Assembly: GCA_000002435.2 (NCBI GenBank)
Contig: AACB03000007.1
Strand: one strand, 5' to 3'
Length of the DNA stretch: 32,836 nucleotides
From: Giardia intestinalis
Lineage: Eukaryota
Below, one piece after another: positions 1 to 29,576 of the stretch. A program made the position numbers and the translations under genes. Below the pieces are notes generated by a model, which had not been told where the DNA came from, searched no databases, and saw only the letters and a list, made by a program, of their open reading frames with translations. The stretch's first letter is position 1. Every line of letters starts with the position of its first letter.

Positions 1-2677
1 TTTGTACATTTTCCTCCCTGCACTGTAGTACACACTTGCTTGCCAGGCTGTCATCTGTCTGATAGCAACCGCCATCTTTGAGGAGAGTATTTTCACATTG
101 AGTGCATGCTCCATTACTCACCGTAGTGCAAAATCGTGTTCGCGTATTGGCCGCACAGTTGCCATCCAGTGGTGCCTGTTGAGTGTTCTTGCACTTTGAG
201 CAGTATGCAGTTCCTCCTATCTGAGCCCCCACTCTGCGCATCCATCGTTTGTAGAACTCACGCTGCACTGGTTCATGCACGTGCCCCATTGGCAGGAGTA
301 TCAGCATCTGTATACTGAAGCATCCTCCAGCAGGACAAGCCGTACACTTATCAGCGCCCTCACCCTTGCACTCTACGCACGCATCGTTGCACTTCTTGCA
401 CTTTCTGTCAGTGTCATTTCCGTAGTAGCCCTTGAGGGTCGTGCAGTCAGATACGCATTGACTGGTTGGGGTGAGGTAGTACTCAGACAGACACTTTGTA
501 CAGACCTCCTTATCGGCACCTTCACTGGTGCACTCCAAACAGTGCTCTGTGTTACAGTTACTGATTGGTTGGCATTCAGTCGATTCAGTATTAGGTTGGA
601 GTCCTTCGTTGCACTCGCACACTTGGCTATCCTGTCCGGTGGCCTTGGGGGTAGAGTTAGCAGGGCAACTAGCAACGCACGACTTTCTGTTGAGACCAAA
701 GATGGTCTTCGTATCAGTCGTACACGTCTTACAAACCACTCCGTTGGCGCCTTTCTCACAAGTGGTGCAGTCAGTTGTTCCAGCCGACACACATGTATTG
801 CACTCCTTTGCTTCTTCATCAACGTAGTGGGTTGCCGGACAACCAGCTGTGTCAACGCACGTGCCGGTTGTGGACTCGCCATCCTTCTTCAGGTACTTCT
901 TGGTCCCAGACGTTTTACACAGGCTGCACTTCTGTTGCTCCTTGGCCACGCACACAGCGCAATTATCATCTGCACACGCGGTGCACTTCTTCTCGGTAGC
1001 GTCGATGAAGAAGCCCTCCTCATTAGTACACGCCTCTGCGCTAACACAGCTGGGTGCATCGCCAGCTTTAAAGTAGAATCCATCAACACACTCCCCACAT
1101 ATATTGTCCACCACACAGCTCTTGCAATCACCCACAGAGCATGTCACACACCCACTACCACCCTTGTTGGGCTTCTTACCACTGTCACAGGCAGTACACA
1201 CAGCGACAGTCATACCAGCTGTTGTTAGAGCTGTCGGGGCTGTGCACTGAGAGCAGCCATCTACTCCCACGTATGCCTTAGCGGTACCTTGAGGATCTAC
1301 TAGTGTGCCTAGGGGGTTACTACATGCCAACACGGACTGCTGAGCATTGGATGCCCCTGGTACCAGGAAGTACTTATTATTCTCATTAACAGCGGTACAG
1401 ACACCGTTGGCTGCTGTCTTGCACATGGACTTACCCGGCTGAGTTGACACACTATAACAACCACCCATGTATAGGAAGTATCCCGTAGTACATGATGTAC
1501 ATATATGATTATCACAAGTATTCCCATTCTTTTGACCACTATCAACACACTTCCCATCAATTGGTATCTTATTGGTCTCTCCACAGTAGGAACAGTAGTG
1601 CTTTGTGGTGCCCTGATCATCAATTATCATGGCATCACAAGCACCAGAGGTACCCCCGCAGGCAGTATCATCCTCACAGGTTTTGGTACATGTAACAGGA
1701 CTGGTACCGCTCTGCTTGTAGTTCGCTTTACAGCCAGTACACTTGAAAGTACTGGCCTCCTTTGTACACTCAGCACACCCATCGATGCCCCCATTGTTTG
1801 TGTCACTACATGAGATGCACTTTCCTGCCGGTTTTGCAACCTCAACGAGGAAGAACCCTGCCTTACAGGTCAGGCACTTATCCTCAGCAGTTTCAGCTGA
1901 GCATGTGGCACAGTTGGCGTGACAGGGGGTGCATGTTACTGAACCAACTCCGGTACTTTTGTATCCCTCCAGGCATTCTGTGCAAGTTGGATTAGCACTC
2001 GCTGTCTTCATGCAAGCCTTACAGCCAGCAATGCCTTTGTTCTTTTGTTCTGGATCCGACGCTGCGGGATCACTGCACAAACGACACACGTTGTCTTCGG
2101 TCATAAAGAGACCGTTATCAGCTCCTTGACACCCGGCGTAGTTCTTCGCCACGCAGGTCGAGGTTCCATCAAGGGTCGTCCTGGGGATCTTACTGTTATC
2201 ACAAGCTGTGCACTTCGGCTTCTTGGTAGTCGAATCAACTTCACACTGGGTACATGCTTGATCTATCGTGTTGCAGTCCCTACAAGTTCCCGACTCTGGG
2301 TCAGCATAAGTGTTTCCAGTGCACTCATTACTATTCACGCATGCATTATCCTTCAGGAACGTATTTCCCTTACAAGAGGTACACTGGGTCGCCGACGTCT
2401 CACAGGTCAGGCAAGAGTCGTTGCACTTCTCACATGCGCCGTTACTATTTAGAAAGTATCCCTCTGTGCATGCAGTACACGTGGCAGCCCCCTTGTTACT
2501 GTCTGGCGCTGTGCATGTGGCGCAGCTCTCCACTCCCTTATATCCATTCGCTCCTGTGGCATCATGACAGAGTATGCACTCCCCACCAGGGGTCACCTTG
2601 TCTGCCCCATTCTGGAATATGTACTGACTATCTGTATTACAAGCAGTGCACAGTCCTCCCTCAGCCTTTGTGCATAT
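1..2677 (-). CDS. Unit 1: partial long-type VSP. Its 3' end runs off the window start and its 5' end is at 2677. It is the paralog of the 1022-aa unit at 10272..13340.
   Basis: Nucleotides 1..2677 align almost base-for-base with 10654..13337. The start is the same ICTKAEGGLCTAC (ATA TGC ACA AAG GCT GAG.. on the minus strand, plus 2669-2677). Relative to both other long copies there is a 3-nt deletion near 88-95 and a 1-nt deletion near 52 (gtcatctg versus gtctatctg). This gives a frameshift in the last ~50 nt of the window. The second GGCY module (KDGGCYQTDRQPG) is encoded near 60-100. Confidence 0.7.
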   Translation of the reverse strand, partial: MCTKAEGGLCTACNTDSQYIFQNGADKVTPGGECILCHDATGANGYKGVESCATCTAPDSNKGAATCTACTEGYFLNSNGACEKCNDSCLTCETSATQCTSCKGNTFLKDNACVNSNECTGNTYADPESGTCRDCNTIDQACTQCEVDSTTKKPKCTACDNSKIPRTTLDGTSTCVAKNYAGCQGADNGLFMTEDNVCRLCSDPAASDPEQKNKGIAGCKACMKTASANPTCTECLEGYKSTGVGSVTCTPCHANCATCSAETAEDKCLTCKAGFFLVEVAKPAGKCISCSDTNNGGIDGCAECTKEASTFKCTGCKANYKQSGTSPVTCTKTCEDDTACGGTSGACDAMIIDDQGTTKHYCSYCGETNKIPIDGKCVDSGQKNGNTCDNHICTSCTTGYFLYMGGCYSVSTQPGKSMCKTAANGVCTAVNENNKYFLVPGASNAQQSVLACSNPLGTLVDPQGTAKAYVGVDGCSQCTAPTALTTAGMTVAVCTACDSGKKPNKGGSGCVTCSVGDCKSCVVDNICGECVDGFYFKAGDAPSCVSAEACTNEEGFFIDATEKKCTACADDNCAVCVAKEQQKCSLCKTSGTKKYLKKDGESTTGTCVDTAGCPATHYVDEEAKECNTCVSAGTTDCTTCEKGANGVVCKTCTTDTKTIFGLNRKSCVASCPANSTPKATGQDSQVCECNEGLQPNTESTECQPISNCNTEHCLECTSEGADKEVCTKCLSEYYLTPTSQCVSDCTTLKGYYGNDTDRKCKKCNDACVECKGEGADKCTACPAGGCFSIQMLILLPMGHVHEPVQREFYKRWMRRVGAQIGGTAYCSKCKNTQQAPLDGNCAANTRTRFCTTVSNGACTQCENTLLKDGGCYQTDDSLASKCVLQCREENVQ

Positions 2678-2737
2678 CTCACTCCACTATCATACTATCA
2701 CCCTCTATCACACATTGTACAGCATTCACTACCCAAG
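2678..2737 (-). promoter_or_regulatory. Inter-VSP spacer (60 nt) with a poly(A) signal AGTGAAT at 2724..2730 and a CACTATCA-type tract.
   Basis: The minus strand reads TGA CTTGGGT AGTGAAT GCTGTACAATGTGTGATAGAGGGTGATAGTATGATAGTGGAGTGAG then ATA TGC. AGTGAAT matches the Giardia AGTRAAY poly(A) signal 7 nt after the stop. Confidence 0.7.
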
Positions 2738-4585: not shown

Positions 4586-4642
4586 ACTCCACTATCATAC
4601 TATCACCCTCTATCACACATTGTACAGCATTCACTACCCAAG
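4586..4642 (-). promoter_or_regulatory. Inter-VSP spacer (57 nt) with a poly(A) signal at 4629..4635.
   Basis: It has the same architecture. The plus strand is atcacactccactatcatactatcaccctctatcacacattgtacagcattcactacccaag. Confidence 0.7.
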
Positions 4643-6508
4643 TCACGCCTTCCCTCTACATATGAACCACCAGCAGAGGAAGCCCACGAGGCCCCCCACG
4701 ACAGCGACCACAGCGACGGAGATCCCCGCGATGGCCCCCGTGGAGAGCCCGCTCCTGTTGGTGCCAGAGGACACACACATGCCATCCCTCGGGACATAGC
4801 CCTCCTCGCACTCCCCGCAGACGCCCTCTGCGCTGCACCGCATGCACCTCTCTATGTCACAGACAATGCACTGGGTGCCGTCCAGGCTGGGTCTCTGGTC
4901 TTTATTGGTACATGCCTCACACTTGTTGTCTGCGCTGCAGTGAGAGCAGCCCTGGGCCGGACACACATAGCAGGTGCTTCCAGCCATGTTGGGCTTCTTA
5001 TTGTCCTCAGCACACACCTCGCACATCCCGTCGATGGCGCAGCTCTTGCACCCGCCGACCGCACACAGGGTGCACCCGCTGCCATCCTTGTTGGGCTTCT
5101 TCGTCTTGTCGCACGCACTACAGACCGCCGCGGCCATCGCATTGGCGGCTGGCGCCTGCGGGGCCGCGCACGCCGTGCAGTCTAGCACGCCGACGTACGC
5201 CTTGTCGCCCGCGGTCGCTCCCACAGGGTTGCCACAGGCAAGCACGGACTGCTGAGCAGCAGAGTCCCCGGGAATCTTGAAGTAGCGCCCGACCGGTGTG
5301 GTGCAGAACCCACTTGGAGCCGCAGAGCACATGAGGTTGCCAGGAGCCTTCGACACATCATAGCAACCACCCATATAGAGGAAGTAGTTGTTGGTGCACC
5401 GCGTACATACGCCATCGGCGCAGGTATTACCTGCAAGTGCATTGGTGCACTTCCCATTAATAGGGCCATAGCCGGCGCCAACACACTTTGAACAGTAAGA
5501 GAGCATGCTGCCGTCGTTGCCGACCACGATGGCGTCGCAGGCCCCTGCTGTCCCTCCACATGCAGTCTCATCTTCACAGGTCTTTGTACATGTGAGGTCG
5601 CTAGGTTCTCCGCTGGGTCTGTAGTTGGGCTTACATTCAGTGCATTTGAGGGACCCCACGCCGCCTGTGCACTCGGCACAGCCTGGAATCCCACTTGTCT
5701 CGTCATCACAGAGAACGCATGTCTTAGGCGGGCCATCCTTAAGGAAGTACCCCGGCATGCATCTTGTACATGTGTTGATTTGACCCGCTGTTCCGCACTC
5801 TGCGCAGTTTCCTGTGCAGGCCTCGCAGGCGTTTCCGTTGACTTTATACCCGTCGACACAAGCCTCGCAGGTGCCTTTTGCGGTGCACAGCTTGCAGTTC
5901 TGGACTCCGCCCTTACCATTGTCGCCGCACTGCACGCACTTCGAGGCGTCGTAGAAGTGCGTCTTGCCCACTTTGCACTCGGCCTCATCAACACAGGTCG
6001 TTGTCCCATCCAGCTCGTCTCTGACCGTCTTACTACCGCAGTCGGTGCACTTCGGCTTTCCCGTGGCGTCGTCGTATGCACACGCGGTGCATCCTTGTAT
6101 CTCACTGCAGGCCTTACAGGTCCAGGTCTTCTTGTCCGCATAGTTACCATTGTCACATCCACCAGCATCTACACAAGTGTTACCATCCTTCAGGTACTTC
6201 CCCTCAACGCAGGCGGTACACTGAGTCGGAGTATCAGCTGAGCAAGCAGAGCAGCCGTCTCCGCACTTCACACATGCACTGTCCTTCGTAACGAACCCTG
6301 CTTGACACTCTGTACACGTGGCCGGTCCGCTAGTGCCCGTGTGGGAGCATTCTGAGCATCCAGCGACTCCCATGACCCCGTTTCTATCTGTCGTATCAGA
6401 GCACAGTATGCACTCACTACCCTTCTCTGGTGTTGCAGCCGGGTTCTTGAACAGGCCGTTATCTGCCTTACAAGCAGTGCACAGTCCTCCCTCAGCCTTT
6501 GTGCATAT
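4643..6508 (-). CDS. Unit 3: VSP paralog (type b, about 621 codons measured from ICTKAEGG). It has an in-frame ATG at 6371-6373 (MGVAGCSECSH) 45 codons into the unit.
   Basis: ORF 4643..6373 ends in ..WWFICRGKA then stop. The frame stays open upstream to 6508 (ICTKAEGGLCTACKADNGLFKNPAATPEKGSECILCSDTTDRNGV-MGVAG..). It contains a GGCY motif. The C-terminal module is ..CDKTKKPNKDGSGCTLCAVGGCKSC... Confidence 0.85.
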   Translation of the reverse strand: MCTKAEGGLCTACKADNGLFKNPAATPEKGSECILCSDTTDRNGVMGVAGCSECSHTGTSGPATCTECQAGFVTKDSACVKCGDGCSACSADTPTQCTACVEGKYLKDGNTCVDAGGCDNGNYADKKTWTCKACSEIQGCTACAYDDATGKPKCTDCGSKTVRDELDGTTTCVDEAECKVGKTHFYDASKCVQCGDNGKGGVQNCKLCTAKGTCEACVDGYKVNGNACEACTGNCAECGTAGQINTCTRCMPGYFLKDGPPKTCVLCDDETSGIPGCAECTGGVGSLKCTECKPNYRPSGEPSDLTCTKTCEDETACGGTAGACDAIVVGNDGSMLSYCSKCVGAGYGPINGKCTNALAGNTCADGVCTRCTNNYFLYMGGCYDVSKAPGNLMCSAAPSGFCTTPVGRYFKIPGDSAAQQSVLACGNPVGATAGDKAYVGVLDCTACAAPQAPAANAMAAAVCSACDKTKKPNKDGSGCTLCAVGGCKSCAIDGMCEVCAEDNKKPNMAGSTCYVCPAQGCSHCSADNKCEACTNKDQRPSLDGTQCIVCDIERCMRCSAEGVCGECEEGYVPRDGMCVSSGTNRSGLSTGAIAGISVAVVAVVGGLVGFLCWWFICRGKA

Positions 6509-6568: not shown

Positions 6569-8320
6569 TCACGCCTTCCCCCTGCACACGAACCACCAGC
6601 AGAGGAAGCCCACGAGGCCCCCCACGACAGCGATGACAGCGACGGAGATCCCCGCGATGGCCCCCGTGGAGAGCCCGCCCCTGTTGGTACTCATAGACAC
6701 ACAGGAGGTCCCACTGCTGTCTAGACTGTACCCATCAACACACTCCCCACACACATCATCCACCACACAGCTCTTGCAGTCACTCACAGAGCACAGCACA
6801 CACCCACTACCATCCCTGTTGGGCTTCTTACTACTGTCACAAGAGGTACACACAGCGACAGTCATACCAGCCCCAGTCAGAGCTGCTGGGGCTGTACACT
6901 GCGAACAGCCATCCACCCCCACATATGCCTTAGAGGTATCACCAGTGCCTACTAGTGTGCCAAGGGAGTTGCTACATGCCAATACAGACTGATTCTGATT
7001 GGTTGCCCCAGGGACTATGAAGTACCTATTGTTGGCATTAACAGCGGTACAGACACCGTTGGCTGCTGTCTTGCACATATGTTGTCCAGGTACTGTATCA
7101 ACCTTGTAACAACCTCCCATATACAAGAAGTAGTTGTTAGTGCATTGTGTACATACACCTTGATCACATTGATTATTTGCTTTAGCACTATTACACTTCC
7201 CATCTATAGGATACGTATTAGCTTCTCCACAGTATGAGCAATAATGATGCTCTACACCCTTATCATCAATCACTATTGCATCGCAGGCACCAGAAGTTCC
7301 TCCACAGGCAGTATCATCTTCACAGATCTTGGTGCATGTGACAGAGCCAGTACTGCCCTCCTTGCGATAGTTAGGCTTACAGTCAGTGCACTTGAAAGCA
7401 CCGTTGTTAGAGCAGACACTGCAGCCTTCGCGACCCTTATCGTCTACGCTATCGCATGGGACGCACTTCTTCCCCTGTTGATCTGTAGTAGTTACTAAGA
7501 AGTATCCAGTCTTGCAGGTTTCACACTTATTTGGATCACCAGCAACAGAGCATGTGGCACAGTTATCACCACACTTGTCTGTACATGTACTAGTACCACT
7601 ATCAAAGAAGTATCCATCGAGACAGGCTGAGCAGGTTGGATTGTCACTTCCTGTTTTCGTACATGTCTTGCAGTTGGCCTTTCCTTCGTTACCAAGAGTT
7701 GAATCTGTCACATCACTACAAAGAGCACACGTTTTGTCCTCCTTCATAAATAAGGCCTCGTCAGCGCCCTCGCATCCTTCAAGCGTCTTCGCCACGCAGG
7801 TCGATGTCCCGTCGAGGGCCGTCCTGGGGGTCTTATTGGTCCCGCAGTTAGTGCACTTCGGCTTCCCCGTGGCCTTGTCGAAGGAGCATGCCGTGCACTC
7901 TGCGTGTATCGTACTACATGCCTTGCATGTTCCCGACTCCGGGTCAGCATAAGTGTTTCCATCGCATCCAGTATCTTGTACACATTGATTACTCTTCAGG
8001 TACTTCCCCTCTGGGCACGATGTACAATGATTCTGACCACTTCCATCGCAGGTCAGACAAGCTTCATTACATTTGACACATGTCTGAGAGTTCTTGTAGT
8101 ATCCATCTTGGCACTCTGTACACGTGGCAGGTCCTGGACTACTGTCTGACTTGGTACACTGTGCGCAGTTAGCCACCCCTGTATATCCATCTGCCCCATT
8201 GACATCATGACAGAGGATGCACTCACTACCAGGCTTCTGAGGTGTAACTGGGTTCTTGAACAGGCCGTTAGCTGTCTTACAAGCAGTGCACACTCCATCA
8301 CTGGCTGCTGTGCATATCAC
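6569..8320 (-). CDS. Unit 4: VSP paralog (583 codons, type c). It is intact and has no ATG.
   Basis: The ORF ends CRGKA then stop. Its start is GTG (8318-8320 cac) preceded by an in-frame TAG. The N-terminus is ICTAASDGVCTACKTANGLFKNPVTPQKPGSECILCHDVNG. The central ~430 aa are identical to unit 2. The C-terminal module is CDSSKKPNRDGSGCVLCSVSDCKSCVVDDVCGECVDGYSLDSSGTSCVSMSTNRGG. Confidence 0.85.
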   Translation of the reverse strand: MICTAASDGVCTACKTANGLFKNPVTPQKPGSECILCHDVNGADGYTGVANCAQCTKSDSSPGPATCTECQDGYYKNSQTCVKCNEACLTCDGSGQNHCTSCPEGKYLKSNQCVQDTGCDGNTYADPESGTCKACSTIHAECTACSFDKATGKPKCTNCGTNKTPRTALDGTSTCVAKTLEGCEGADEALFMKEDKTCALCSDVTDSTLGNEGKANCKTCTKTGSDNPTCSACLDGYFFDSGTSTCTDKCGDNCATCSVAGDPNKCETCKTGYFLVTTTDQQGKKCVPCDSVDDKGREGCSVCSNNGAFKCTDCKPNYRKEGSTGSVTCTKICEDDTACGGTSGACDAIVIDDKGVEHHYCSYCGEANTYPIDGKCNSAKANNQCDQGVCTQCTNNYFLYMGGCYKVDTVPGQHMCKTAANGVCTAVNANNRYFIVPGATNQNQSVLACSNSLGTLVGTGDTSKAYVGVDGCSQCTAPAALTGAGMTVAVCTSCDSSKKPNRDGSGCVLCSVSDCKSCVVDDVCGECVDGYSLDSSGTSCVSMSTNRGGLSTGAIAGISVAVIAVVGGLVGFLCWWFVCRGKA

Positions 8321-8387
8321 ACTCCACTATCACACATTATCACACTATCACCTTCTATCACACATTGTACAGCATTCACTACCTAAG
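8321..8387 (-). promoter_or_regulatory. Inter-VSP spacer (67 nt) with a poly(A) signal at 8374..8380. It carries an extra cacacattat insertion.
   Basis: The minus strand reads TGA CTTAGGT AGTGAAT. This is an exact match to the extended VSP 3' motif remembered as ACTYAGRTAGTRAAY. The CACTATCA tract is longer here. Confidence 0.7.
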
Positions 8388-10211: not shown

Positions 10212-10271
10212 CTCACTCCACTATCATACTATCACCCTCTATCACACATTGTACAGCATTCACTACCTAAG
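10212..10271 (-). promoter_or_regulatory. Inter-VSP spacer (60 nt) with a poly(A) signal at 10258..10264.
   Basis: TGA CTTAGGT AGTGAAT variant. Same tract. Confidence 0.7.
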
Positions 10272-13200
10272 TCACGCCTTCCCCCTGCACACGAACCACC
10301 AACACAAGAAGCCCACGAGGCCCCCCACGACAGCGATGACAGCCACGGAGATCCCTGCTATGGCACCAGTACTGAGGCCGCTCTTGTTGACGCTTCCGCC
10401 GGTGTTGTCGCCAGTGCCGTCGCCCATCACGAAGCACATGAACGCACCGGTGGATGACACCGTGCACTGCCTGCACCCAGCGAGCCCCTCAGAGCACGGA
10501 TTACACTTTGTCCCAGCACTCTGCGGTTTGTAATATCCAGTGCTGCATGTAGCACAGGCGTTAGCGTCGTTAGCAGCCGTGCATGTCTCGCAGCTAAGAT
10601 GGCACCTTTTATTGGAACAATCGCCATTATCAGCCGTTAGACCACTGGCACATTTTGTACATTTTCCTCCCTGCACTGTAGTACACACTTGCTTGCCAGG
10701 CTGTCTATCTGTCTGATAGCAACCGCCATCTTTGAGGAAGTAGTTATTTTCACATTGAGTGCATGCTCCATTACTCACCGTAGTGCAAAATCGTGTTCGC
10801 GTATTGGCCGCACAGTTGCCATCCAGTGGTGCCTGTTGAGTGTTCTTGCACTTTGAGCAGTATGCAGTTCCTCCTATCTGAGCCCCACACTCTGCGCATC
10901 CATCGTTTGTAGAACTCACGCTGCACTGGTTCATGCACGTGCCCCCATTGGCAGGAGTATCAGCATCTGTATACTGAAGCATCCTCCCAGCAGGACAAGC
11001 CGTACACTTATCAGCGCCCTCACCCTTGCACTCTACGCACGCATCGTTGCACTTCTTGCACTTTCTGTCAGTGTCATTTCCGTAGTAGCCCTTGAGGGTC
11101 GTGCAGTCAGATACGCATTGACTGGTTGGGGTGAGGTAGTACTCAGACAGACACTTTGTACAGACCTCCTTATCGGCACCTTCACTGGTGCACTCCAAAC
11201 AGTGCTCTGTGTTACAGTTACTGATTGGTTGGCATTCAGTCGATTCAGTATTAGGTTGGAGTCCTTCGTTGCACTCGCACACTTGGCTATCCTGTCCGGT
11301 GGCCTTGGGGGTAGAGTTAGCAGGGCAACTAGCAACGCACGACTTTCTGTTGAGACCAAAGATGGTCTTCGTATCAGTCGTACACGTCTTACAAACCACT
11401 CCGTTGGCGCCTTTCTCACAAGTGGTGCAGTCAGTTGTTCCAGCCGACACACATGTATTGCACTCCTTTGCTTCTTCATCAACGTAGTGGGTTGCCGGAC
11501 AACCAGCTGTGTCAACGCACGTGCCGGTTGTGGACTCGCCATCCTTCTTCAGGTACTTCTTGGTCCCAGACGTTTTACACAGGCTGCACTTCTGTTGCTC
11601 CTTGGCCACGCACACAGCGCAATTATCATCTGCACACGCGGTGCACTTCTTCTCGGTAGCGTCGATGAAGAAGCCCTCCTCATTAGTACACGCCTCTGCG
11701 CTAACACAGCTGGGTGCATCGCCAGCTTTAAAGTAGAATCCATCAACACACTCCCCACATATATTGTCCACCACACAGCTCTTGCAATCACCCACAGAGC
11801 ATGTCACACACCCACTACCACCCTTGTTGGGCTTCTTACCACTGTCACAGGCAGTACACACAGCGGCAGCCATACCAACTGTTGTTAGAGCTGCTGGGGC
11901 TGTACACTGGGAGCAGCCATGTACCCCCACATATGCCTTAGCGGTACCTTGAGGATCTACTAGTGTGCCTAGGGGGTTACTACATGCCAACACGGACTGC
12001 TGAGCATTGGATGCCCCTGGTACCAGGAAGTACTTATTATTCTCATTAACAGCGGTACAGACACCGTTGGCTGCTGTCTTGCACATGGACTTACCCGGCT
12101 GAGTTGACACACTATAACAACCACCCATGTATAGGAAGTATCCCGTAGTACATGATGTACATATATGATTATCACAAGTATTCCCATTCTTTTGACCACT
12201 ATCAACACACTTCCCATCAATTGGTATCTTATTGGTCTCTCCACAGTAGGAACAGTAGTGCTTTGTGGTGCCCTGATCATCAATTATCATGGCATCACAA
12301 GCACCAGAGGTACCCCCGCAGGCAGTATCATCCTCACAGGTTTTGGTACATGTAACAGGACTGGTACCGCTCTGCTTGTAGTTCGCTTTACAGCCAGTAC
12401 ACTTGAAAGTACTGGCCTCCTTTGTACACTCAGCACACCCATCGATGCCCCCATTGTTTGTGTCACTACATGAGATGCACTTTCCTGCCGGTTTTGCAAC
12501 CTCAACGAGGAAGAACCCTGCCTTACAGGTCAGGCACTTATCCTCAGCAGTTTCAGCTGAGCATGTGGCACAGTTGGCGTGACAGGGGGTGCATGTTACT
12601 GAACCAACTCCGGTACTTTTGTATCCCTCCAGGCATTCTGTGCAAGTTGGATTAGCACTCGCTGTCTTCATGCAAGCCTTACAGCCAGCAATGCCTTTGT
12701 TCTTTTGTTCTGGATCCGACGCTGCGGGATCACTGCACAAACGACACACGTTGTCTTCGGTCATAAAGAGACCGTTATCAGCTCCTTGACACCCGGCGTA
12801 GTTCTTCGCCACGCAGGTCGAGGTTCCATCAAGGGTCGTCCTGGGGATCTTACTGCTATCACAAGCTGTGCACTTCGGCTTCTTGGTAGTCGAATCAACT
12901 TCACACTGGGTACATGCTTGATCTATCGTGTTGCAGTCCCTACAAGTTCCCGACTCTGGGTCAGCATAAGTGTTTCCAGTGCACTCATTACTATTCACGC
13001 ATGCATTATCCTTCAGGAACGTATTTCCCTTACAAGAGGTACACTGGGTCGCCGACGTCTCACAGGTCAGGCAAGAGTCGTTGCACTTCTCACATGCGCC
13101 GTTACTATTTAGAAAGTATCCCTCTGTGCATGCAGTACACGTGGCAGCCCCCTTGTTACTGTCTGGCGCTGTGCATGTGGCGCAGCTCTCCACTCCCTTA

Positions 13201-13340
13201 TATCCATTCGCTCCTGTGGCATCATGACAGAGTATGCACTCCCCACCAGGGGTCACCTTGTCTGCCCCATTCTGGAATATGTACTGACTATCTGTATTAC
13301 AAGCAGTGCACAGTCCTCCCTCAGCCTTTGTGCATATCAC
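10272..13340 (-). CDS. Unit 6: long double-core VSP (1022 codons). It is intact and has no ATG.
   Basis: A single ORF runs from a GTG start (13338-13340) to the CRGKA stop. It has two GGCY modules: YMGGCYSVSTQPG encoded near 12100-12140, and KDGGCYQTDRQPG encoded near 10700-10740. About 440 extra Cys-rich residues are inserted between the usual C-terminal module and the TM/CRGKA tail. Confidence 0.85.
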   Translation of the reverse strand: MICTKAEGGLCTACNTDSQYIFQNGADKVTPGGECILCHDATGANGYKGVESCATCTAPDSNKGAATCTACTEGYFLNSNGACEKCNDSCLTCETSATQCTSCKGNTFLKDNACVNSNECTGNTYADPESGTCRDCNTIDQACTQCEVDSTTKKPKCTACDSSKIPRTTLDGTSTCVAKNYAGCQGADNGLFMTEDNVCRLCSDPAASDPEQKNKGIAGCKACMKTASANPTCTECLEGYKSTGVGSVTCTPCHANCATCSAETAEDKCLTCKAGFFLVEVAKPAGKCISCSDTNNGGIDGCAECTKEASTFKCTGCKANYKQSGTSPVTCTKTCEDDTACGGTSGACDAMIIDDQGTTKHYCSYCGETNKIPIDGKCVDSGQKNGNTCDNHICTSCTTGYFLYMGGCYSVSTQPGKSMCKTAANGVCTAVNENNKYFLVPGASNAQQSVLACSNPLGTLVDPQGTAKAYVGVHGCSQCTAPAALTTVGMAAAVCTACDSGKKPNKGGSGCVTCSVGDCKSCVVDNICGECVDGFYFKAGDAPSCVSAEACTNEEGFFIDATEKKCTACADDNCAVCVAKEQQKCSLCKTSGTKKYLKKDGESTTGTCVDTAGCPATHYVDEEAKECNTCVSAGTTDCTTCEKGANGVVCKTCTTDTKTIFGLNRKSCVASCPANSTPKATGQDSQVCECNEGLQPNTESTECQPISNCNTEHCLECTSEGADKEVCTKCLSEYYLTPTSQCVSDCTTLKGYYGNDTDRKCKKCNDACVECKGEGADKCTACPAGRMLQYTDADTPANGGTCMNQCSVSSTNDGCAECGAQIGGTAYCSKCKNTQQAPLDGNCAANTRTRFCTTVSNGACTQCENNYFLKDGGCYQTDRQPGKQVCTTVQGGKCTKCASGLTADNGDCSNKRCHLSCETCTAANDANACATCSTGYYKPQSAGTKCNPCSEGLAGCRQCTVSSTGAFMCFVMGDGTGDNTGGSVNKSGLSTGAIAGISVAVIAVVGGLVGFLCWWFVCRGKA

Positions 13341-13397
13341 ACTCCACTATCATACTATCACCCTCTATCACACATTGTACAGCATTCACTACCCAAG
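13341..13397 (-). promoter_or_regulatory. Inter-VSP spacer (57 nt) with a poly(A) signal at 13384..13390.
   Basis: Same conserved spacer. Confidence 0.7.
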
Positions 13398-15146
13398 TCA
13401 CGCCTTCCCCCTGCACACGAACCACCAGCAGAGGAAGCCCACGAGGCCCCCCACGACGACGACCACGGCCACGGAGATCCCCGCGATGGCCCCCGTGGAG
13501 AGCCCGCCCCTGTTGGTACTCATAGACACACAGGAGGTCCCACTGCTGTCTAGACTGTACCCATCAACACACTCCCCACACACATCATCCACCACACAGC
13601 TCTTGCAGTCACTCACAGAGCACAGCACACACCCACTACCATCCCTGTTGGGCTTCTTACTACTGTCACAAGAGGTACACACAGCGACAGTCATACCAGC
13701 CCCAGTCAGAGCTGCTGGGGCTGTACACTGCGAACAGCCATCCACCCCCACATATGCCTTAGAGGTATCACCAGTGCCTACTAGTGTGCCAAGGGAGTTG
13801 CTACATGCCAATACAGACTGATTCTGATTGGTTGCCCCAGGGACTATGAAGTACCTATTGTTGGCATTAACAGCGGTACAGACACCGTTGGCTGCTGTCT
13901 TGCACATATGTTGTCCAGGTACTGTATCAACCTTGTAACAACCTCCCATATACAAGAAGTAGTTGTTAGTGCATTGTGTACATACACCTTGATCACATTG
14001 ATTATTTGCTTTAGCACTATTACACTTCCCATCTATAGGATACGTATTAGCTTCTCCACAGTATGAGCAATAATGATGCTCTACACCCTTATCATCAATC
14101 ACTATTGCATCGCAGGCACCAGAAGTTCCTCCACAGGCAGTATCATCTTCACAGATCTTGGTGCATGTGACAGAGCCAGTACTGCCCTCCTTGCGATAGT
14201 TAGGCTTACAGTCAGTGCACTTGAAAGCACCGTTGTTAGAGCAGACACTGCAGCCTTCGCGACCCTTATCGTCTACGCTATCGCATGGGACGCACTTCTT
14301 CCCCTGTTGATCTGTAGTAGTTACTAAGAAGTATCCAGTCTTGCAGGTTTCACACTTATTTGGATCACCAGCAACAGAGCATGTGGCACAGTTATCACCA
14401 CACTTGTCTGTACATGTACTAGTACCACTATCAAAGAAGTATCCATCGAGACAGGCTGAGCAGGTTGGATTGTCACTTCCTGTTTTCGTACATGTCTTGC
14501 AGTTGGCCTTTCCTTCGTTACCAAGAGTTGAATCTGTCACATCACTACAAAGAGCACACGTTTTGTCCTCCTTCATAAATAAGGCCTCGTCAGCGCCCTC
14601 GCATCCTTCAAGCGTCTTCGCCACGCAGGTCGATGTCCCGTCGAGGGCCGTCCTGGGGGTCTTATTGGTCCCGCAGTTAGTGCACTTCGGCTTCCCCGTG
14701 GCCTTGTCGAAGGAGCATGCCGTGCACTCTGCGTGTATCGTACTACATGCCTTGCATGTTCCCGACTCCGGGTCAGCATAAGTGTTTCCATCGCATCCAG
14801 TATCTTGTACACATTGATTACTCTTCAGGTACTTCCCCTCTGGGCACGATGTACAATGATTCTGACCACTTCCATCGCAGGTCAGACAAGCGTCATTACA
14901 TTTGACACATGTCTGAGAGTTCTTGTAGTATCCATCTTGGCACTCTGTACACGTGGCAGGTCCTGGACTACTGTCTGACTTGGTACACTGTGCGCAGTTA
15001 GCCACCCCTGTATATCCATCTGCCCCATTGACATCATGACAGAGGATGCACTCACTACCAGGCTTCTGAGGTGTAACTGGGTTCTTGAACAGGCCGTTAG
15101 CTGTCTTACAAGCAGTGCACAGTCCTCCCTCAGCCTTTGTGCATAT
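13398..15146 (-). CDS. Unit 7: VSP paralog (about 582 codons, type c). It is intact and has no ATG.
   Basis: ORF 13398..15005 starts at a GTG (..GVANCAQC). The frame is open upstream to 15146 (ICTKAEGGLCTACKTANGLFKNPVTPQKPGSECILCHDVNGADGYTG). It is almost identical to unit 4. The TM region is slightly different (AVVVVVGG). It ends CRGKA then stop. Confidence 0.85.
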   Translation of the reverse strand: MCTKAEGGLCTACKTANGLFKNPVTPQKPGSECILCHDVNGADGYTGVANCAQCTKSDSSPGPATCTECQDGYYKNSQTCVKCNDACLTCDGSGQNHCTSCPEGKYLKSNQCVQDTGCDGNTYADPESGTCKACSTIHAECTACSFDKATGKPKCTNCGTNKTPRTALDGTSTCVAKTLEGCEGADEALFMKEDKTCALCSDVTDSTLGNEGKANCKTCTKTGSDNPTCSACLDGYFFDSGTSTCTDKCGDNCATCSVAGDPNKCETCKTGYFLVTTTDQQGKKCVPCDSVDDKGREGCSVCSNNGAFKCTDCKPNYRKEGSTGSVTCTKICEDDTACGGTSGACDAIVIDDKGVEHHYCSYCGEANTYPIDGKCNSAKANNQCDQGVCTQCTNNYFLYMGGCYKVDTVPGQHMCKTAANGVCTAVNANNRYFIVPGATNQNQSVLACSNSLGTLVGTGDTSKAYVGVDGCSQCTAPAALTGAGMTVAVCTSCDSSKKPNRDGSGCVLCSVSDCKSCVVDDVCGECVDGYSLDSSGTSCVSMSTNRGGLSTGAIAGISVAVVVVVGGLVGFLCWWFVCRGKA

Positions 15147-17132: not shown

Positions 17133-18941
17133 TCACGCCTTCCCCCTGCACACGAACCACCAGCAGAGGAAGCCCACGAGGCCCCCCACGACAGCGATGA
17201 CAGCGACGGAGATCCCTGCTATGGCACCAGTACTGAGGCCGCTCTTGTTGGTGCCAGAGGACGCACAGGAGGTCCCACTGCTGTCAGGGCTGTATCCATC
17301 GTTGCACACACAGACAGAGTCGGTGTCAGTGGAGTTGCTGGGGCAGCTATCCACGCATGACTTCCTTCCAGGGCTCACCTTCTTACCACTACTGCATGCC
17401 TCGCACATGTTGTCCATATCACAGTGCGAGCATCCACTAACGGTACATGGGAAGCACCCGCTCCCAGCCAGGTTGGGCTTGTTGTTGTTGGTACACGCTG
17501 TGCACGTGGCGGCAGTCATGCCACCATCAGATGGAGCTGCTGGGGCCGTACATGCCGAACAGCCATCTACCCCCACATATGCCTTAGAGGTATCACCAGT
17601 GCCTACTAGTGTGCCTAGGGGGTTCTCGCAGGCCAGGACAGACTGATCAGTATTGGATGCCCCCGGGACCAGGAAGTACCGGCCGTTCTCGCTGGGGGCG
17701 GTGCACCTCCCTCCCTCGGCAGTCTTGCACATGTGGCTGCCAGGAGCCTTCGACACATCATAGCAGCCGCCCATGTACAGGAAGAACCCGGCAGCACACC
17801 GGGTGCAGACGCCATTGGCACAGGTGTTGTCACCCTTAGTTCCTGTGCAGATCCCATCGATGGGGAACGTGGCGGGGTCTCCGCACAGCGAGCAGTACTG
17901 GGAGAACGCCCCGGCGCTGTCAACGACGACCGCCCCGCAGGCCCCAGACGTCCCCCCGCAGGCCGTGGGGTCCTCGCAGGCCTTTGTGCACTTCACCGGA
18001 TTGGTTCCCTCCTTGCGATAGTTGGACTTGCAATCGGTGCATGTAGGGGTTAGGCCGCTGTTACATTGGGAGCACCCCTCGATGCCATTGTCGGCTTTAC
18101 TGTCGCAGGCGAAGCACTTACCAGCAGAGCCGGGTTGTTTCATGAAGAATCCAGGCTTGCATTTAGTGCACTGATCATTGCCAGCAGCAGAGCATGTAGC
18201 ACAGTTGGCACCGCAAGCTGTGCATGTATCAGAACCAAAGTATCCGTCGAGGCAAGCTGAGCAGGTCGGCTTGGCTCCGTTCTTCTTACACGTTTTACAA
18301 TTAGCAATCCCCTTGTCGTTTGCTTCTGTTCCTGTTGTTGTATCACTGCATAATATGCACTTGGTGCTATCATCACTCAGAAAGTGGGATCCGTCGACGT
18401 TATCTGTTGCGCACCCAGCATCATCGACGCAAGTGGTTGTCCCATCCAGCTCTGTCTTCACCTTCTTATTGTTACAGGCGGTGCACTGGGGCTTGCTGAC
18501 AGTCGTGTTGTACTCACACGCGGTGCAATCTGCTATACCAGACTCCTTGCATGTCATTGTCATAGGGTCAGCATAAGTGTTTCCAGTGCATCCATCACTA
18601 TTCACGCATGCATTATCCTTCAGGAACGTATTTCCCTTACAAGAGGTACACTGGGTCGCCGATGTCTCACAGGTCAGACAAGTACCATCACATTTGGTAC
18701 ATGCCTGAGAGTCCATGTAGTACCCATCTTGACACTCGGTGCACGTGGCCGCTCCTGTATTGCCACCAGGTGCCGTGCACTTGAGACAGTTGGCCACTCC
18801 CTTGTTCTCATTCGCTCCTGTGGCATCATGACAGAGGATGCACTCCCCACCAGGGGTCACCTTGTCTGCCCCATTCTGGAATATGTACTTGTTATCTGCC
18901 TTACAAGCAGTGCACAGTCCTCCCTCAGCCTTTGTGCATAT
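17133..18941 (-). CDS. Unit 9: VSP paralog (about 602 codons). It combines a type d N-terminus and centre with a unique C-terminal module.
   Basis: ORF 17133..18860 is extended in frame to 18941 (ICTKAEGGLCTACKADNKYIFQNGADKVTPGGE..). The C-terminal module [73 protein letters not shown] is not seen in any other unit. It ends CRGKA then stop. Confidence 0.85.
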   Translation of the reverse strand: MCTKAEGGLCTACKADNKYIFQNGADKVTPGGECILCHDATGANENKGVANCLKCTAPGGNTGAATCTECQDGYYMDSQACTKCDGTCLTCETSATQCTSCKGNTFLKDNACVNSDGCTGNTYADPMTMTCKESGIADCTACEYNTTVSKPQCTACNNKKVKTELDGTTTCVDDAGCATDNVDGSHFLSDDSTKCILCSDTTTGTEANDKGIANCKTCKKNGAKPTCSACLDGYFGSDTCTACGANCATCSAAGNDQCTKCKPGFFMKQPGSAGKCFACDSKADNGIEGCSQCNSGLTPTCTDCKSNYRKEGTNPVKCTKACEDPTACGGTSGACGAVVVDSAGAFSQYCSLCGDPATFPIDGICTGTKGDNTCANGVCTRCAAGFFLYMGGCYDVSKAPGSHMCKTAEGGRCTAPSENGRYFLVPGASNTDQSVLACENPLGTLVGTGDTSKAYVGVDGCSACTAPAAPSDGGMTAATCTACTNNNKPNLAGSGCFPCTVSGCSHCDMDNMCEACSSGKKVSPGRKSCVDSCPSNSTDTDSVCVCNDGYSPDSSGTSCASSGTNKSGLSTGAIAGISVAVIAVVGGLVGFLCWWFVCRGKA

Positions 18942-20822: not shown

Positions 20823-23800
20823 TCACGCCTTCCCCCTGCACACGAACCACCAGCAGAGGAAGCCCACGAGGCCCCCCACGACAGCGATGACAGCCACGGA
20901 GATCCCTGCTATGGCACCAGTACTGAGGCCGCTCTTGTTGACGCTTCCGCCGGTGTTGTCGCCAGTGCCGTCGCCCATCACGAAGCACATGAACGCACCG
21001 GTGGATGACACCGTGCACTGCCTGCACCCAGCGAGCCCCTCAGAGCACGGATTACACTTTGTCCCAGCACTCTGCGGTTTGTAATATCCAGTGCTGCATG
21101 TAGCACAGGCGTTAGCGTCGTTAGCAGCCGTGCATGTCTCGCAGCTAAGATGGCACCTTTTATTGGAACAATCGCCATTATCAGCCGTTAGACCACTGGC
21201 ACATTTTGTACATTTTCCTCCCTGCACTGTAGTACACACTTGCTTGCCAGGCTGTCTATCTGTCTGATAGCAACCGCCATCTTTGAGGAAGTAGTTATTT
21301 TCACATTGAGTGCATGCTCCATTACTCACCGTAGTGCAAAATCGTGTTCGCGTATTGGCCGCACAGTTGCCATCCAGTGGTGCCTGTTGAGTGTTCTTGC
21401 ACTTTGAGCAGTATGCAGTTCCTCCTATCTGAGCCCCACACTCTGCGCATCCATCGTTTGTAGAACTCACGCTGCACTGGTTCATGCACGTGCCCCCATT
21501 GGCAGGAGTATCAGCATCTGTATACTGAAGCATCCTCCCAGCAGGACAAGCCGTACACTTATCAGCGCCCTCACCCTTGCACTCTACGCACGCATCGTTG
21601 CACTTCTTGCACTTTCTGTCAGTGTCATTTCCGTAGTAGCCCTTGAGGGTCGTGCAGTCAGATACGCATTGACTGGTTGGGGTGAGGTAGTACTCAGACA
21701 GACACTTTGTACAGACCTCCTTATCGGCACCTTCACTGGTGCACTCCAAACAGTGCTCTGTGTTACAGTTACTGATTGGTTGGCATTCAGTCGATTCAGT
21801 ATTAGGTTGGAGTCCTTCGTTGCACTCGCACACTTGGCTATCCTGTCCGGTGGCCTTGGGGGTAGAGTTAGCAGGGCAACTAGCAACGCACGACTTTCTG
21901 TTGAGACCAAAGATGGTCTTCGTATCAGTCGTACACGTCTTACAAACCACTCCGTTGGCGCCTTTCTCACAAGTGGTGCAGTCAGTTGTTCCAGCCGACA
22001 CACATGTATTGCACTCCTTTGCTTCTTCATCAACGTAGTGGGTTGCCGGACAACCAGCTGTGTCAACGCACGTGCCGGTTGTGGACTCGCCATCCTTCTT
22101 CAGGTACTTCTTGGTCCCAGACGTTTTACACAGGCTGCACTTCTGTTGCTCCTTGGCCACGCACACAGCGCAATTATCATCTGCACACGCGGTGCACTTC
22201 TTCTCGGTAGCGTCGATGAAGAAGCCCTCCTCATTAGTACACGCCTCTGCGCTAACACAGCTGGGTGCATCGCCAGCTTTAAAGTAGAATCCATCAACAC
22301 ACTCCCCACATATATTGTCCACCACACAGCTCTTGCAATCACCCACAGAGCATGTCACACACCCACTACCACCCTTGTTGGGCTTCTTACCACTGTCACA
22401 GGCAGTACACACAGCGGCAGTCATACCAGCTGTTGTTAGAGCTGCGGGGCTGTACACTGGGAGCAGCCATGTACCCCCACATATGCCTTAGCGGTACCTT
22501 GAGGATCTACTAGTGTGCCTAGGGGGTTACTACATGCCAACACGGACTGCTGAGCATTGGATGCCCCTGGTACCAGGAAGTACTTATTATTCTCATTAAC
22601 AGCGGTACAGACACCGTTGGCTGCTGTCTTGCACATATGTTGTCCAGGTGGACTCTGAGTGCTATAACAACCACCCATATATAAGAAATATCCTGTAGTA
22701 CAAGACTCACAGACATGGTTGTTACAAGTATTACTTTGAGCCTCACTAGCACAGAGACCATCTATAGGATACTTACTGCTATCCCCACAGTATGAACAGT
22801 AGTGCTTTGTGGTGCCCTGATCATCTATTATCATGGCATCACAAGCACCAGAGGTACCCCCACAGGCAGTATCATCTTCACATACCTTTGTACATGTAAC
22901 AGGACTGGTACCACTCTGCTTGCGATAGTTCACCTTACAGTCAGTACACTTGAAAGTACTGGCCTCCATTGTGCATTGGGAGCACCCCTCGATGCCCCCA
23001 TTGTTTGTGTCATCGCAGGCGAAGCATTCTCCAGGAGTGCTACTGACCTTCAGGAAGAACCCGGTCTTGCAGGTTTGGCATTTGGTCTTGTCAGCTTTTT
23101 CAGAACATGTGGCACAGTTAGCACCACAGGCCTCACACGTGGCGGCAGGGCCATTTCCTTCTTTGATATACCCTTCGAGGCATTCTATGCATTCTGGTTT
23201 CTGACTTTGCTGCTTAGTACATGTCTTGCAGCCGGCAATGCCTTTGTTCTTTGGTTCTGAATCCGACGCTGCGGGATCACTGCACAAACGACACACGTTG
23301 TCTTCGGTCATAAAGAGACCGTTATCAGCTCCTTGACACCCGGCGTAGTCTTTTGTCACACAGGTCGAGGTCCCATCAAGGGTCGTCCTGGGGGTCTTAT
23401 TGGTCCCGCAGTTGGTGCACCTTGGCTTTCCCGTGGCATCATTATATTCACATGCGGTGCACCCAGCTATGTCGGGATCACATGCCTTGCAGGTCCAGGT
23501 CTTCTTGTCTGCGTACTGGGTTGCCTCGCATCCACTAGCATCTACACATTGATTATTCTTCAGGTACTTCCCCTCAACGCAGGCGGTACACTGAGTCGGA
23601 GTATCAGCTGAGCAAGCAGAGCAGCCGTCTCCGCACTTCACACATGCACTGTCCTTCGTAACGAACCCTGCTTGACACTCTGTACACGTGGCCGGTCCGC
23701 TAGTGCCCGTGTGGGAGCATTCTGAGCATCCAGCGACTCCCATGACCCCGTTTCTATCTATAGTATCGGAGCACAAGATGCACTCACTACCAGGCTTCTG

Positions 23801-23878
23801 AGGTGTAACTGGGTTCTTGAACAGGCCGTTAGCTGTCTTACAAGCAGTGCACAGTCCTCCCTCAGCCTTTGTGCATAT
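20823..23878 (-). pseudogene. Unit 11: long-type VSP with a 1-nt deletion frameshift near 22447. It is split into two ORFs and has a type b N-terminus.
   Basis: ORF 22436..23776 (..HGCSQCTAPQL then stop) and ORF 20823..22457 (MYSPAALTTAGMTAAVCTAC.. to CRGKA) together are colinear with unit 6. Plus 22441-22452 reads gctgcggggctg, where unit 6 has gctgctggggctg at about 11891. The N-terminal part is open to 23878 and is of the MGVAGCSECSH type. Confidence 0.75.
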
Positions 23879-23938
23879 CTCACTCCACTATCATACTATC
23901 ACCCTCTATCACACATTGTACAGCATTCACTACCCAAG
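23879..23938 (-). promoter_or_regulatory. Inter-VSP spacer (60 nt) with a poly(A) signal at 23925..23931.
   Basis: Same conserved spacer. Confidence 0.7.
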
Positions 23939-25779
23939 TCACGCCTTCCCCCTGCACACGAACCACCAGCAGAGGAAGCCCACGAGGCCCCCCACGACAG
24001 CGATGACAGCCACGGAGATCCCTGCTATGGCACCAGTACTGAGGCCGCTTCTGTTGCCCCCGCTGGGCTTGGTGGACACGCACGCCTCACCCTCCAGCCT
24101 GTAGTCGTCCCCGCACTGGCCGCACTTGTTCTCCTCGCTGCACCTGACGCACCCGTCGATATTGCAGGCGATGCACTTCGTTCCGTCTGTGTTCGGCCTC
24201 TGGTCTTTACTGGTACAGGCCTCGCACTTATCGCCTGCTCCACAGTGCGAGCATCCACTAACGGTACATGGGAAGCACCCGCTCCCAGCCAGGTTGGGCT
24301 TGTTGTTGTTGGTACACGCTGTGCACGTGGCGGCAGTCATGCCACCATCAGATGGAGCTGCTGGGGCTGTACACTGTGAACAGTTGATACCCCCACGTAT
24401 GCCTTAGCAGTATCACCAGTGCCTACTAGTGTGCCTAGGGGGTTCTCGCAGGCCAGGACAGACTGATCAGTATTGGATGCCCCCGGGACCAGGAAGTACC
24501 GGCCGTTCTCGCTGGGGGCGGTGCACCTCCCTCCCTCGGCAGTCTTGCACATGTGGCTGCCAGGAGCCTTCGACACATCATAGCAGCCGCCCATGTACAG
24601 GAAGAACCCGGCAGCACACCGGGTGCAGACGCCATTGGCACAGGTGTTGTCACCCTTAGTTCCTGTGCAGATCCCATCGATGGGGAACGTGGCGGGGTCT
24701 CCGCACAGCGAGCAGTACTGGGAGAACGCCCCGGCGCTGTCAACGACGACCGCCCCGCAGGCCCCAGACGTCCCCCCGCAGGCCGTGGGGTCCTCGCAGG
24801 CCTTTGTGCACTTCACCGGATTGGTTCCCTCCTTGCGATAGTTGAGCTTACAGGAGTTGCAGGTCAACGAGCCAGCGAAGGTGCACGTTGCACACCCATC
24901 GACTCCATCTGTCGGGTTATCACAGGGGACGCATGTGCCGGGGGAAGTGCCCCCTCTCAAGAAGAACCCGGTCTTGCAGGTTTGGCATTTGGTCTTGTCA
25001 GCTTTCTCAGAGCAGGTTGCGCAGTTCTCGCCACAGGCGTCACATGTGAAGCCGCTGTTGGTGTTCTTGATGTACCCCTCCAGGCACTCTGTGCAGGTCG
25101 GCGGTGTGGCGCCAGTCCTCGAGCACTTCTTACAGCCGACGATGCCCTGGTTCTTCTTCTCTTGCTCTGTCACTGCGTCGCTGCATAGAATACACGCTGT
25201 TGCGTCGTCTTTCATGAATAGCCCACTATCGGTGGCTTTGCAGCCGTCGTCTGTCTTTTCCACGCACGTCGTCGTCCCGTCGGCAGCAGTTCTTACCAGC
25301 TTCCCGTTACAATCGGTGCACCTCGGCTTTCCCGTGGCATCATTATATTCACATGCGGTGCACCCAGCTATGTCGGGATCACATGCCTTGCAGGTCCAGG
25401 TCTTCTTGTCTGCGTACTGGGTTGCCTCGCATCCACTAGCATCTACACATTGATTATTCTTCAGGTACTTCCCCTCAACGCAGGCGGTACACTGAGTCGG
25501 AGTATCAGCTGAGCAAGCAGAGCAGCCGTCTCCGCACTTCACACATGCACTGTCCTTCGTAACGAACCCTGCTTGACACTCTGTACACGTGGCCGGTCCG
25601 CTAGTGCCCGTGTGGGAGCATTCTGAGCATCCAGCGACTCCCATGACCCCGTTTCTATTTATAGTATCGGAGCACAGTATGCACTCACTACCCTTCTCTG
25701 GTGTTGCAGCCGGGTTCTTGAACAGGCCGTTATCTGCCTTACAAGCAGTGCACAGTCCTCCCTCAGCCTTTGTGCATAT
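23939..25779 (-). pseudogene. Unit 12: VSP with a 1-nt deletion frameshift near 24388. It has a type b N-terminus, a type d centre and a type a C-terminus.
   Basis: ORF 24337..25644 ends ..[23 protein letters not shown] then stop, out of frame. ORF 23939..24340 carries the normal [20 protein letters not shown]-terminus. Plus 24383-24392 reads cagttgatac, where the paralog at 8831 has cagttgagtac. The frame is open 5' to 25779. Confidence 0.75.
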
Positions 25780-25839
25780 CTCACTCCACTATCATACTAT
25801 CACCCTCTATCACACATTGTACAGCATTCACTACCCAAG
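25780..25839 (-). promoter_or_regulatory. Inter-VSP spacer (60 nt) with a poly(A) signal at 25826..25832.
   Basis: Same conserved spacer. Confidence 0.7.
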
Positions 25840-29502: not shown

Positions 29503-29576
29503 CACACTCCACTATCACACATTATCACACTATCACCTCTATCACACCATCACCATTGTAAGCATTCACTACCAAG
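29503..29576 (-). promoter_or_regulatory. Inter-VSP spacer (74 nt, degraded) with a poly(A) signal at 29564..29570.
   Basis: Relative to the spacer at 8321..8387 it has several indels (tgtaagcattcactaccaagtca versus tgtacagcattcactacctaagtca). Confidence 0.6.

Follow-up and report, generated by a model that had tools for sequence, protein, structure and literature searches.

What is the long open frame that stands among shorter units in an array of surface protein genes of Giardia intestinalis, and how did it come to carry two cores? The question arises in contig AACB03000007.1 (assembly GCA_000002435.2), of which 32,836 nucleotides were analysed; this whole stretch is called the window below. 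It holds units that belong to the family of variant-specific surface proteins (VSPs), and one of them, the long unit, runs over 1022 codons and contains two GGCY motifs. A first reading made from the letters alone (the sequence-only reading) saw in it a double-core VSP produced by in-frame fusion or internal duplication of two ectodomains. It left the strand unstated; the frame lies on the minus strand. Our results indicate that the long unit is very probably a silent, 5'-truncated VSP cassette (pseudo-VSP) in a linear array and a mosaic built by recombination. It is a cassette of the known linear array type, and its layout is ordinary for the family and already described. Coordinates are collected in Table 1.

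The long unit and its missing 5' end

The long unit matches the Pfam VSP profile (PF03302) with 272.6 bits against a curated cut-off of 31.4 (E 6.6e-81). Its ectodomain holds 45 CXXC motifs and has a Cys content of 12.5%. GGCY is found twice, at amino acids (aa) 406-409 (nt 12114-12125) and at aa 872-875 (nt 10716-10727), and the CRGKA tail (aa 1018-1022) is preceded by a C-terminal hydrophobic helix. The frame is where the sequence-only reading had placed it, and both peptide strings quoted there were found in its translation. The best database relatives are all Giardia intestinalis/duodenalis VSPs, headed by XP_001707661.1 (P0001) of isolate WB. By its sequence, the long unit can be assigned to the VSP family with a CRGKA-type tail, closest to the assemblage A isolate WB.

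The 5' end of a functional VSP is lacking. The frame of the long unit does not start with ATG; its listed start is GTG, stop codons lie two codons upstream, and just 57 nt separate it from the stop of the previous unit. Of the ten internal in-frame Met residues, none precedes a hydrophobic leader, and no signal-peptide leader was found in any unit of the window. The VSP initiator YAATGTT was found 0 times across the 32.8-kb window (5.0 +/- 2.2 expected), and the spacers offer only CAATGTG followed by a stop. Functional VSPs are recognized by an ATG with an N-terminal signal peptide and by the YAATGTT initiator, and the long unit has neither. The size of the missing part can be read from P0003, a complete VSP of isolate P15. 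Its alignment to the long unit begins at P0003 residue 107, and therefore about 106 aa, comprising the signal peptide and an N-terminal GGCY module (the N module), are missing from the long unit.

The surroundings are those of a silent array. All units lie head-to-tail on the minus strand; there are 15 CRGKA-stop tails and one cut unit per end, about 16 units altogether. The spacers from a stop to the next open VSP frame typically measure ~51-62 nt (~114 nt for unit 27756..29576) and are nearly identical to one another, for example 13341..13397 and 4586..4642 (TGACTTGGGTAGTGAATGCTGTACAATGTGTGATAGAGGGTGATAGTATGATAGTGGAGTG). Each holds an extended VSP poly(A) signal and the initiator-like CAATGTG, which departs from the canonical CAATGTT by one base; TGATAG repeats bring stops into each of the three frames. 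The extended signal was found at 14 sites in the window against 0.01 expected and is carried by every unit; in VSP genes the motif ACUUAGRUAGURAAYRY stands just after the stop (bioRxiv 10.1101/2022.03.07.483299). The start of the complete P15 homologue reads CAATGTTGTGTGTAGGAG, and a relic of such a start might survive in the spacer, although the match to CAATGTTGTGTGTAGGAG is too short to judge. Very short spacers, head-to-tail order and the lack of a start codon or signal peptide are the marks of pseudo-VSP linear arrays, and all of them are found here. An ATG-started frame of 576 aa is present in unit 4643..6373.

Linear arrays of this kind have been described (Adam et al. 2010, PMC2996952; Xu et al. 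2020, PMC7000408, PMC7641422), with head-to-tail order, ~60-bp spacers, downstream members in which initiator, proper start codon and signal peptide are all missing, and evidence of duplication and recombination. Nothing essential differs in the window, which adds a period of ~10.6 kb. In the published arrays the spacers average 60 bp, and the downstream members without initiator were proposed to be recombination cassettes or discarded genes (PMC2996952). Such units are classed as pseudo-VSPs in the current Giardia genome annotation (PMC7000408), and the counterpart arrays of G. muris are essentially untranscribed and show signs of gene conversion (PMC7641422). None of the ~16 units of the window is a functional gene. 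The long unit would not be expressed on its own, and any biological role of the cassette would be that of a sequence reservoir.

Table 1. Features of the long unit and its further copies, with positions in the window.
Feature	Position	Strand	Basis or remark
Long-unit open frame	10272..13340	minus	1022 codons + stop; no ATG start, no signal peptide; Pfam VSP PF03302
GGCY module 1, class M	12045..12278 (aa 355-432)	minus	Module comparison; AF2 pLDDT 90-97
GGCY module 2, class C	10641..10883 (aa 820-900)	minus	Module comparison; AF2 pLDDT 86-94
5' junction, last codons common with short units, CGECVDG	11739..11759 (aa 528-534)	minus	DNA alignment
Long-specific segment, ~1350 nt	~10389..11738 (aa 535-984)	minus	DNA alignment
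Tract shared with other VSPs	10275..11534 (aa 603-1022)	minus	Protein ~96% (399/420) to WB P0002, ~97% to P0001
Stalk, transmembrane helix and CRGKA tail, conserved	10275..10388 (aa 985-1022)	minus	
Extended poly(A) signal, VSP type, ACTTAGGTAGTGAATGC	10256..10272	minus	Overlaps the stop codon of the long unit
Spacer 5' of the long unit, 57 nt	13341..13397	minus	Poly(A) signal of the previous unit, CAATGTG, TGATAG repeats giving stops in all frames
Second long copy, cut by the window start	1..2737	minus	~99% identical to 10272..13397
Third long copy	20823..23938	minus	3' 1.74 kb ~100% identical to 10272..13397; 1-nt deletion at 22445/22446 splits the frame

Two cores and three classes of GGCY module

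The two halves of the long unit are related to each other. They were compared by BLASTP with composition correction (aa 1-560 against aa 561-990), which gave an alignment of 215 aa with 31% identity and E 4e-14. GGCY stands opposite GGCY in this alignment, and the flanking sequences are in register, with YCSYCGETNKIPIDGKC opposite YCSKCKNTQQAPLDGNC and YFLYMGGCYSVSTQPGK opposite YFLKDGGCYQTDRQPGK. As a control, only the non-Cys residues of the second half were permuted, such that the Cys spacing was preserved. The Smith-Waterman score of the halves is 344 against 195 +/- 15 in these shuffles (z 9.7, 0/300), and the comparison of core with core (~85 aa each) gives z 12.2 (0/1000). The similarity is therefore far beyond generic Cys spacing, and the outcome that would have refuted the sequence-only reading did not arise.

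Relatedness of the cores does not make one a recent copy of the other. All modules centred on GGCY in the 120 best homologues and in the units of the window were extracted and compared. Core 1 has its nearest relatives (scores 290-350) in the middle or last-before-membrane modules of those VSPs of ~600-700 aa that are akin to the short units. The WB proteins P0001 and P0002 carry a core identical to core 2, whose next nearest relatives are the last-before-membrane modules of a different set of ~620-680-aa VSPs (P0023, P0005, P0101, P0108, and others). Core 1 and core 2 score 166 against each other, whereas closer relatives elsewhere score 350 and 445. The two cores belong to two old module classes. 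The sequence-only reading had offered internal duplication as one origin of the long unit. A recent internal duplication of one ectodomain was considered and rejected: the halves are 31% identical, each core is much closer to other proteins, and the second half is ~96% identical to P0002, a separate complete VSP.

Three classes of GGCY module can be told apart, namely N (just behind the signal peptide), M (middle) and C (next to the membrane). By hhalign, the profile of each class is homologous to the other two (probability 99.7%, E ~1e-25 to 1e-26). Among the 120 best homologues and the long unit the architectures are N-M (54), M alone (29), N-C (11), N-M-C (4) and M-C (3); the homologues with M alone are apparently for the most part truncated models. 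Two GGCY motifs are present in 95 of the 120 best homologues and three in 7. Besides P0003, the N-M-C proteins are P0004 (also P15), P0008 and P0014. The homology of the three profiles and the recurrence of the modules across homologues make the GGCY module an old, recurrent building block, of which the long unit carries the M and C versions. The long VSP architecture consists of three homologous GGCY modules in the order N-M-C. All array units begin just after the N module, which leaves the short units with M as their single core and the long unit with both M and C.

The name double-core fits the long unit only when it is set against its truncated neighbours. Where relatives of the short units are complete, they already contain two GGCY modules, and the complete long ones contain three. 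GGCY is known from 83% of the WB VSPs, with a mean of 1.4 per protein and a maximum of five, and these proteins vary widely in size and have recombined across clades (Adam et al. 2010, PMC2996952). By number of GGCY, the complete WB VSPs comprise 49 with one, 64 with two and 4 with more (preprint 10.1101/2022.03.07.483299), so that the two of the long unit are the commonest number in WB VSPs. VSPs with at least two GGCY motifs, very long VSPs, inter-clade recombination and start-less pseudo-VSP arrays are all in the literature, and a near-identical long cassette (P0001) is already annotated in the WB genome; as a discovery, the long unit is of little importance. What is gained is a clearer view of the window, in which module classes N, M and C combine as N-M, N-C or N-M-C.

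The AlphaFold2 (AF2) model of the long unit, built on a 40-sequence alignment, has a mean predicted local distance difference test score (pLDDT) of 81. Both GGCY cores are modelled with confidence (Table 1), and a transmembrane helix spans aa 1001-1019; aa ~590-700, between the blocks, are poorly defined. Around GGCY both cores consist of strand, strand, strand, short helix, strand and strand. A sequence search of the PDB with the long unit gave no match, and Foldseek with the full AF2 model returned nothing at E<1e-3. A local likeness to furin-like repeats (R-spondin Fu1-Fu2, TM-score 0.55-0.66 over ~100 residues) was judged generic and was not used.

Mosaic structure and competing explanations

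The long unit is made of blocks with different relatives. Its last 420 residues are shared with the complete WB VSP P0002 (658 aa), including GGCY module 2. At the protein level, at which alone the breakpoints are defined, 36-40 of 40 residues per 40-aa block are identical from about aa 625 to the end, and identity falls to ~55-70% just before the tract and to ~20-40% farther upstream, with values below 50% on the N-terminal side of ~aa 550. P0002 differs in having its own signal peptide and N-terminal GGCY module and in lacking the whole M region. P0001 and P0002, both from WB, are in turn ~99% identical in their last ~400 aa and about 25-45% identical upstream, where alignable. In the first 1.7 kb of the long unit the best-matching short unit switches chunk by chunk, at 70-99% identity. 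A block shared with another VSP that ends in an abrupt change of identity is the pattern of a mosaic, and the long unit has it. Its first ~530 aa are a patchwork akin to the neighbouring short units, and its last ~420 aa a block that is nearly identical in other VSP genes, including a complete, signal-peptide-bearing one. Abrupt identity boundaries are what recombination or gene conversion produces, and we infer, rather than observe, that VSP genes gave rise to the blocks through homologous recombination or segmental gene conversion with one another.

The DNA of the long unit departs from that of its neighbours at a sharp point. Short units such as 27756..29576 and 6569..8387 match it up to CGECVDG and then again only from aa ~985; they hold ~16 codons in place of the long-specific segment, and no short unit of the window has a DNA match to that segment. 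The second, divergent core with its additional CXXC motifs was therefore placed correctly by the sequence-only reading, exactly where some short units pass into the transmembrane/CRGKA tail. This arrangement is also what a recent local in-frame fusion would leave, in which a deletion between neighbouring units took out the first transmembrane segment and tail, the spacer and the next unit's 5' part and so made a new double-ectodomain unit peculiar to this array. Neighbouring units share one orientation, the point at which short units pass into the stalk and transmembrane region is exactly the start of the long-specific segment, and the lack of a DNA counterpart of the second half in short units is expected if the donor unit was consumed. 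Such an event is nonetheless very unlikely. The junction peptide, …CVVDNIC.EC.DG.YFKAG..PSCVSAE.C…, with the part FYFKAG(D/E)(A/T)PSCVSAE(A/E)C (…CVVDNICGECVDGFYFKAGDAPSCVSAEAC…), recurs in the WB proteins P0001 and P0021, and in P0021 the sequence past it continues into a different C region. Long VSPs colinear with the long unit are found elsewhere, among them the complete stand-alone P0003 with its non-VSP neighbours and a 36%-identical homologue of 1079 aa with the same layout. Together with the shared junction, these proteins argue against a recent fusion specific to this array, and the window itself already holds three long copies whose 5' halves differ. The WB and P15 homologues largely refute a recent fusion. 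The word fusion is fair for the layout, in which two blocks of ectodomain follow each other in one frame; for a one-off event in this unit it does not hold.

The search for similar double-core VSPs that had been proposed found them. P0001 (887 aa, an N-terminally truncated model from the 2007 assembly of WB) has the same M and C double-GGCY layout, junction and tail, with 79% identity over 87% of the query and ~97% in the second half. It differs in its first ~380 aa, which derive from another unit type and resemble window unit 29577..31427, and by about 18 substitutions from aa 530 on, which suggests another isolate or array copy. The long VSPs of P15 have M and C plus N. P0003 (assemblage E, 1075 aa, ACVC01000201.1) is colinear with all 1022 residues at 46% identity and shares the M and C modules, the transmembrane segment and the tail. 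What sets it apart is its own signal peptide, the initiator CAATGTT, an N module as its third with GGCY, a CRGRA tail and another junction region, and it is a stand-alone gene beside NEK/ankyrin genes with non-VSP flanks. A colinear long layout is also found in P0066, a more distant Giardia-like sequence; the 1079-aa sequence with this layout is from a read-archive assembly. P0003 and P0004 differ between their M and C regions by roughly 85-100 aa, and in P0003 the block is flanked by a direct repeat, CVQIQP, which suggests that a module was gained or lost by way of the repeat.

Some observations weigh against the long unit being a silent cassette. Its frame is intact over all 1022 codons. Between unit types dS is near saturation, dN/dS is 0.15-0.33, and Cys is conserved at 93-100% of its positions. 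These differences therefore arose under protein-level constraint, and so low a ratio is not what long-term neutral decay of dead genes leaves. The first array member with a proper 5' end may also lie beyond the window. An uninterrupted frame from spacer to CRGKA tail is kept in 13 of the 16 units. The constraint fits units that stem recently from functional genes or still exchange sequence with them, or else some expression that is invisible in the sequence. The differences may be older than the arrival of the units in the array, or exchange between the array and functional genes may be going on; the pattern is compatible with a donor reservoir and no proof of one.

An expression-competent long VSP would account for several of these points. 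It would use a non-ATG or downstream start, or be completed at the 5' side through recombination, and two GGCY domains would be exposed at the cell surface. Such a gene would explain the intact frame, the transmembrane/CRGKA tail, the perfect VSP poly(A) signal, the pattern of purifying selection in the divergence and an AF2 model that is confident over both halves. It is highly unlikely, given that ATG, signal peptide and initiator are all lacking and stops follow immediately upstream, that current Giardia annotation treats such units as pseudo-VSPs (PMC7000408), and that the corresponding G. muris arrays are essentially untranscribed (PMC7641422). A chimera made by repeat-induced mis-joining in the assembly is scarcely credible: the array is highly repetitive, and clustered 1-nt deletions in the first ~330 nt together with single-base frameshifts in two units point to possible sequencing errors at some positions, but the identical junction is found in three window copies, and the independently sequenced WB model XP_001707661.1 has the same junction and second half.

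The C-terminal block of ~1.26 kb, near-identical in silent array cassettes (the long unit and P0001) and in the complete, signal-peptide-bearing P0002, could conceivably record a recent segmental gene conversion in which a pseudo-VSP array and an expression-competent gene took part, a possibility that we regard as tentative. There are parallels in the VSG pseudogene arrays of trypanosomes and the MSG genes of Pneumocystis (PMC7641422), in which arrayed, promoter-less and partly defective copies have mosaic segments in common with expression-competent genes. Giardia differs in that VSP switching is regarded as epigenetic or post-transcriptional, and conversion from donor to expression site has not been demonstrated. 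Were gene conversion the cause, the antigen repertoire of Giardia would be enlarged by mosaics from silent long cassettes, as in trypanosomes, besides epigenetic switching, and selection on the cassettes as donors would account for their open frames and low dN/dS. The places where identity between the cassettes and a complete VSP changes sharply are concrete, testable candidates for gene-conversion tracts.

The higher-order repeat and minor observations

The long unit does not stand alone, since the window holds three long copies (Table 1). They are ~100% identical in the long-specific segment. The 5' half of the copy at 20823..23938 comes from another lineage and matches other units. Four short units lie between consecutive long ones, and self-alignment of the window gives offsets of ~10.53-10.65 kb at 91-99% identity. 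The array thus has a higher-order repeat of five units, ~10.6 kb in length, made of one long and four short units. The order and content of the short units vary between periods. No statement of this ~10.6-kb period was found in the cited array literature (PMC2996952, PMC7000408, PMC7641422).

Small deletions are present at several places. Single-nucleotide deletions at 22445/22446 and at about 24374..24399 interrupt the frames of the neighbouring units 20823..23938 and 23939..25839. They lie at nearly the same protein position, just after AYVGV or in CSQCTAP, and may be sequencing errors, real pseudogenisation or the result of a conversion tract common to both units. Compared with the otherwise ~100% identical copy at 10272..13397, the window has four 1-nt deletions and one 3-nt deletion in its first ~330 nt. 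Two of the 1-nt deletions are in G runs, one is beside a G run and one is in ATAGAC. The set looks like lower sequence quality at the contig end.

Small pieces of long-type sequence are also found in short units. Unit 17133..18860 (minus strand) ends in …GRKSCVDSCPSNSTDTDSVCVCNDGYSP…, and by eye this resembles the mid-section of the second half of the long unit (…NRKSCVASCPANSTPKATGQDSQVCECNEGLQP…). On the plus strand, antisense open frames of 150-360 aa are numerous opposite the VSP units, for example 11118..11888 and 12914..13525. No evidence of gene status was found for these antisense frames in the window, and the biased codon composition of the Cys-rich frame is the most likely reason for their presence.

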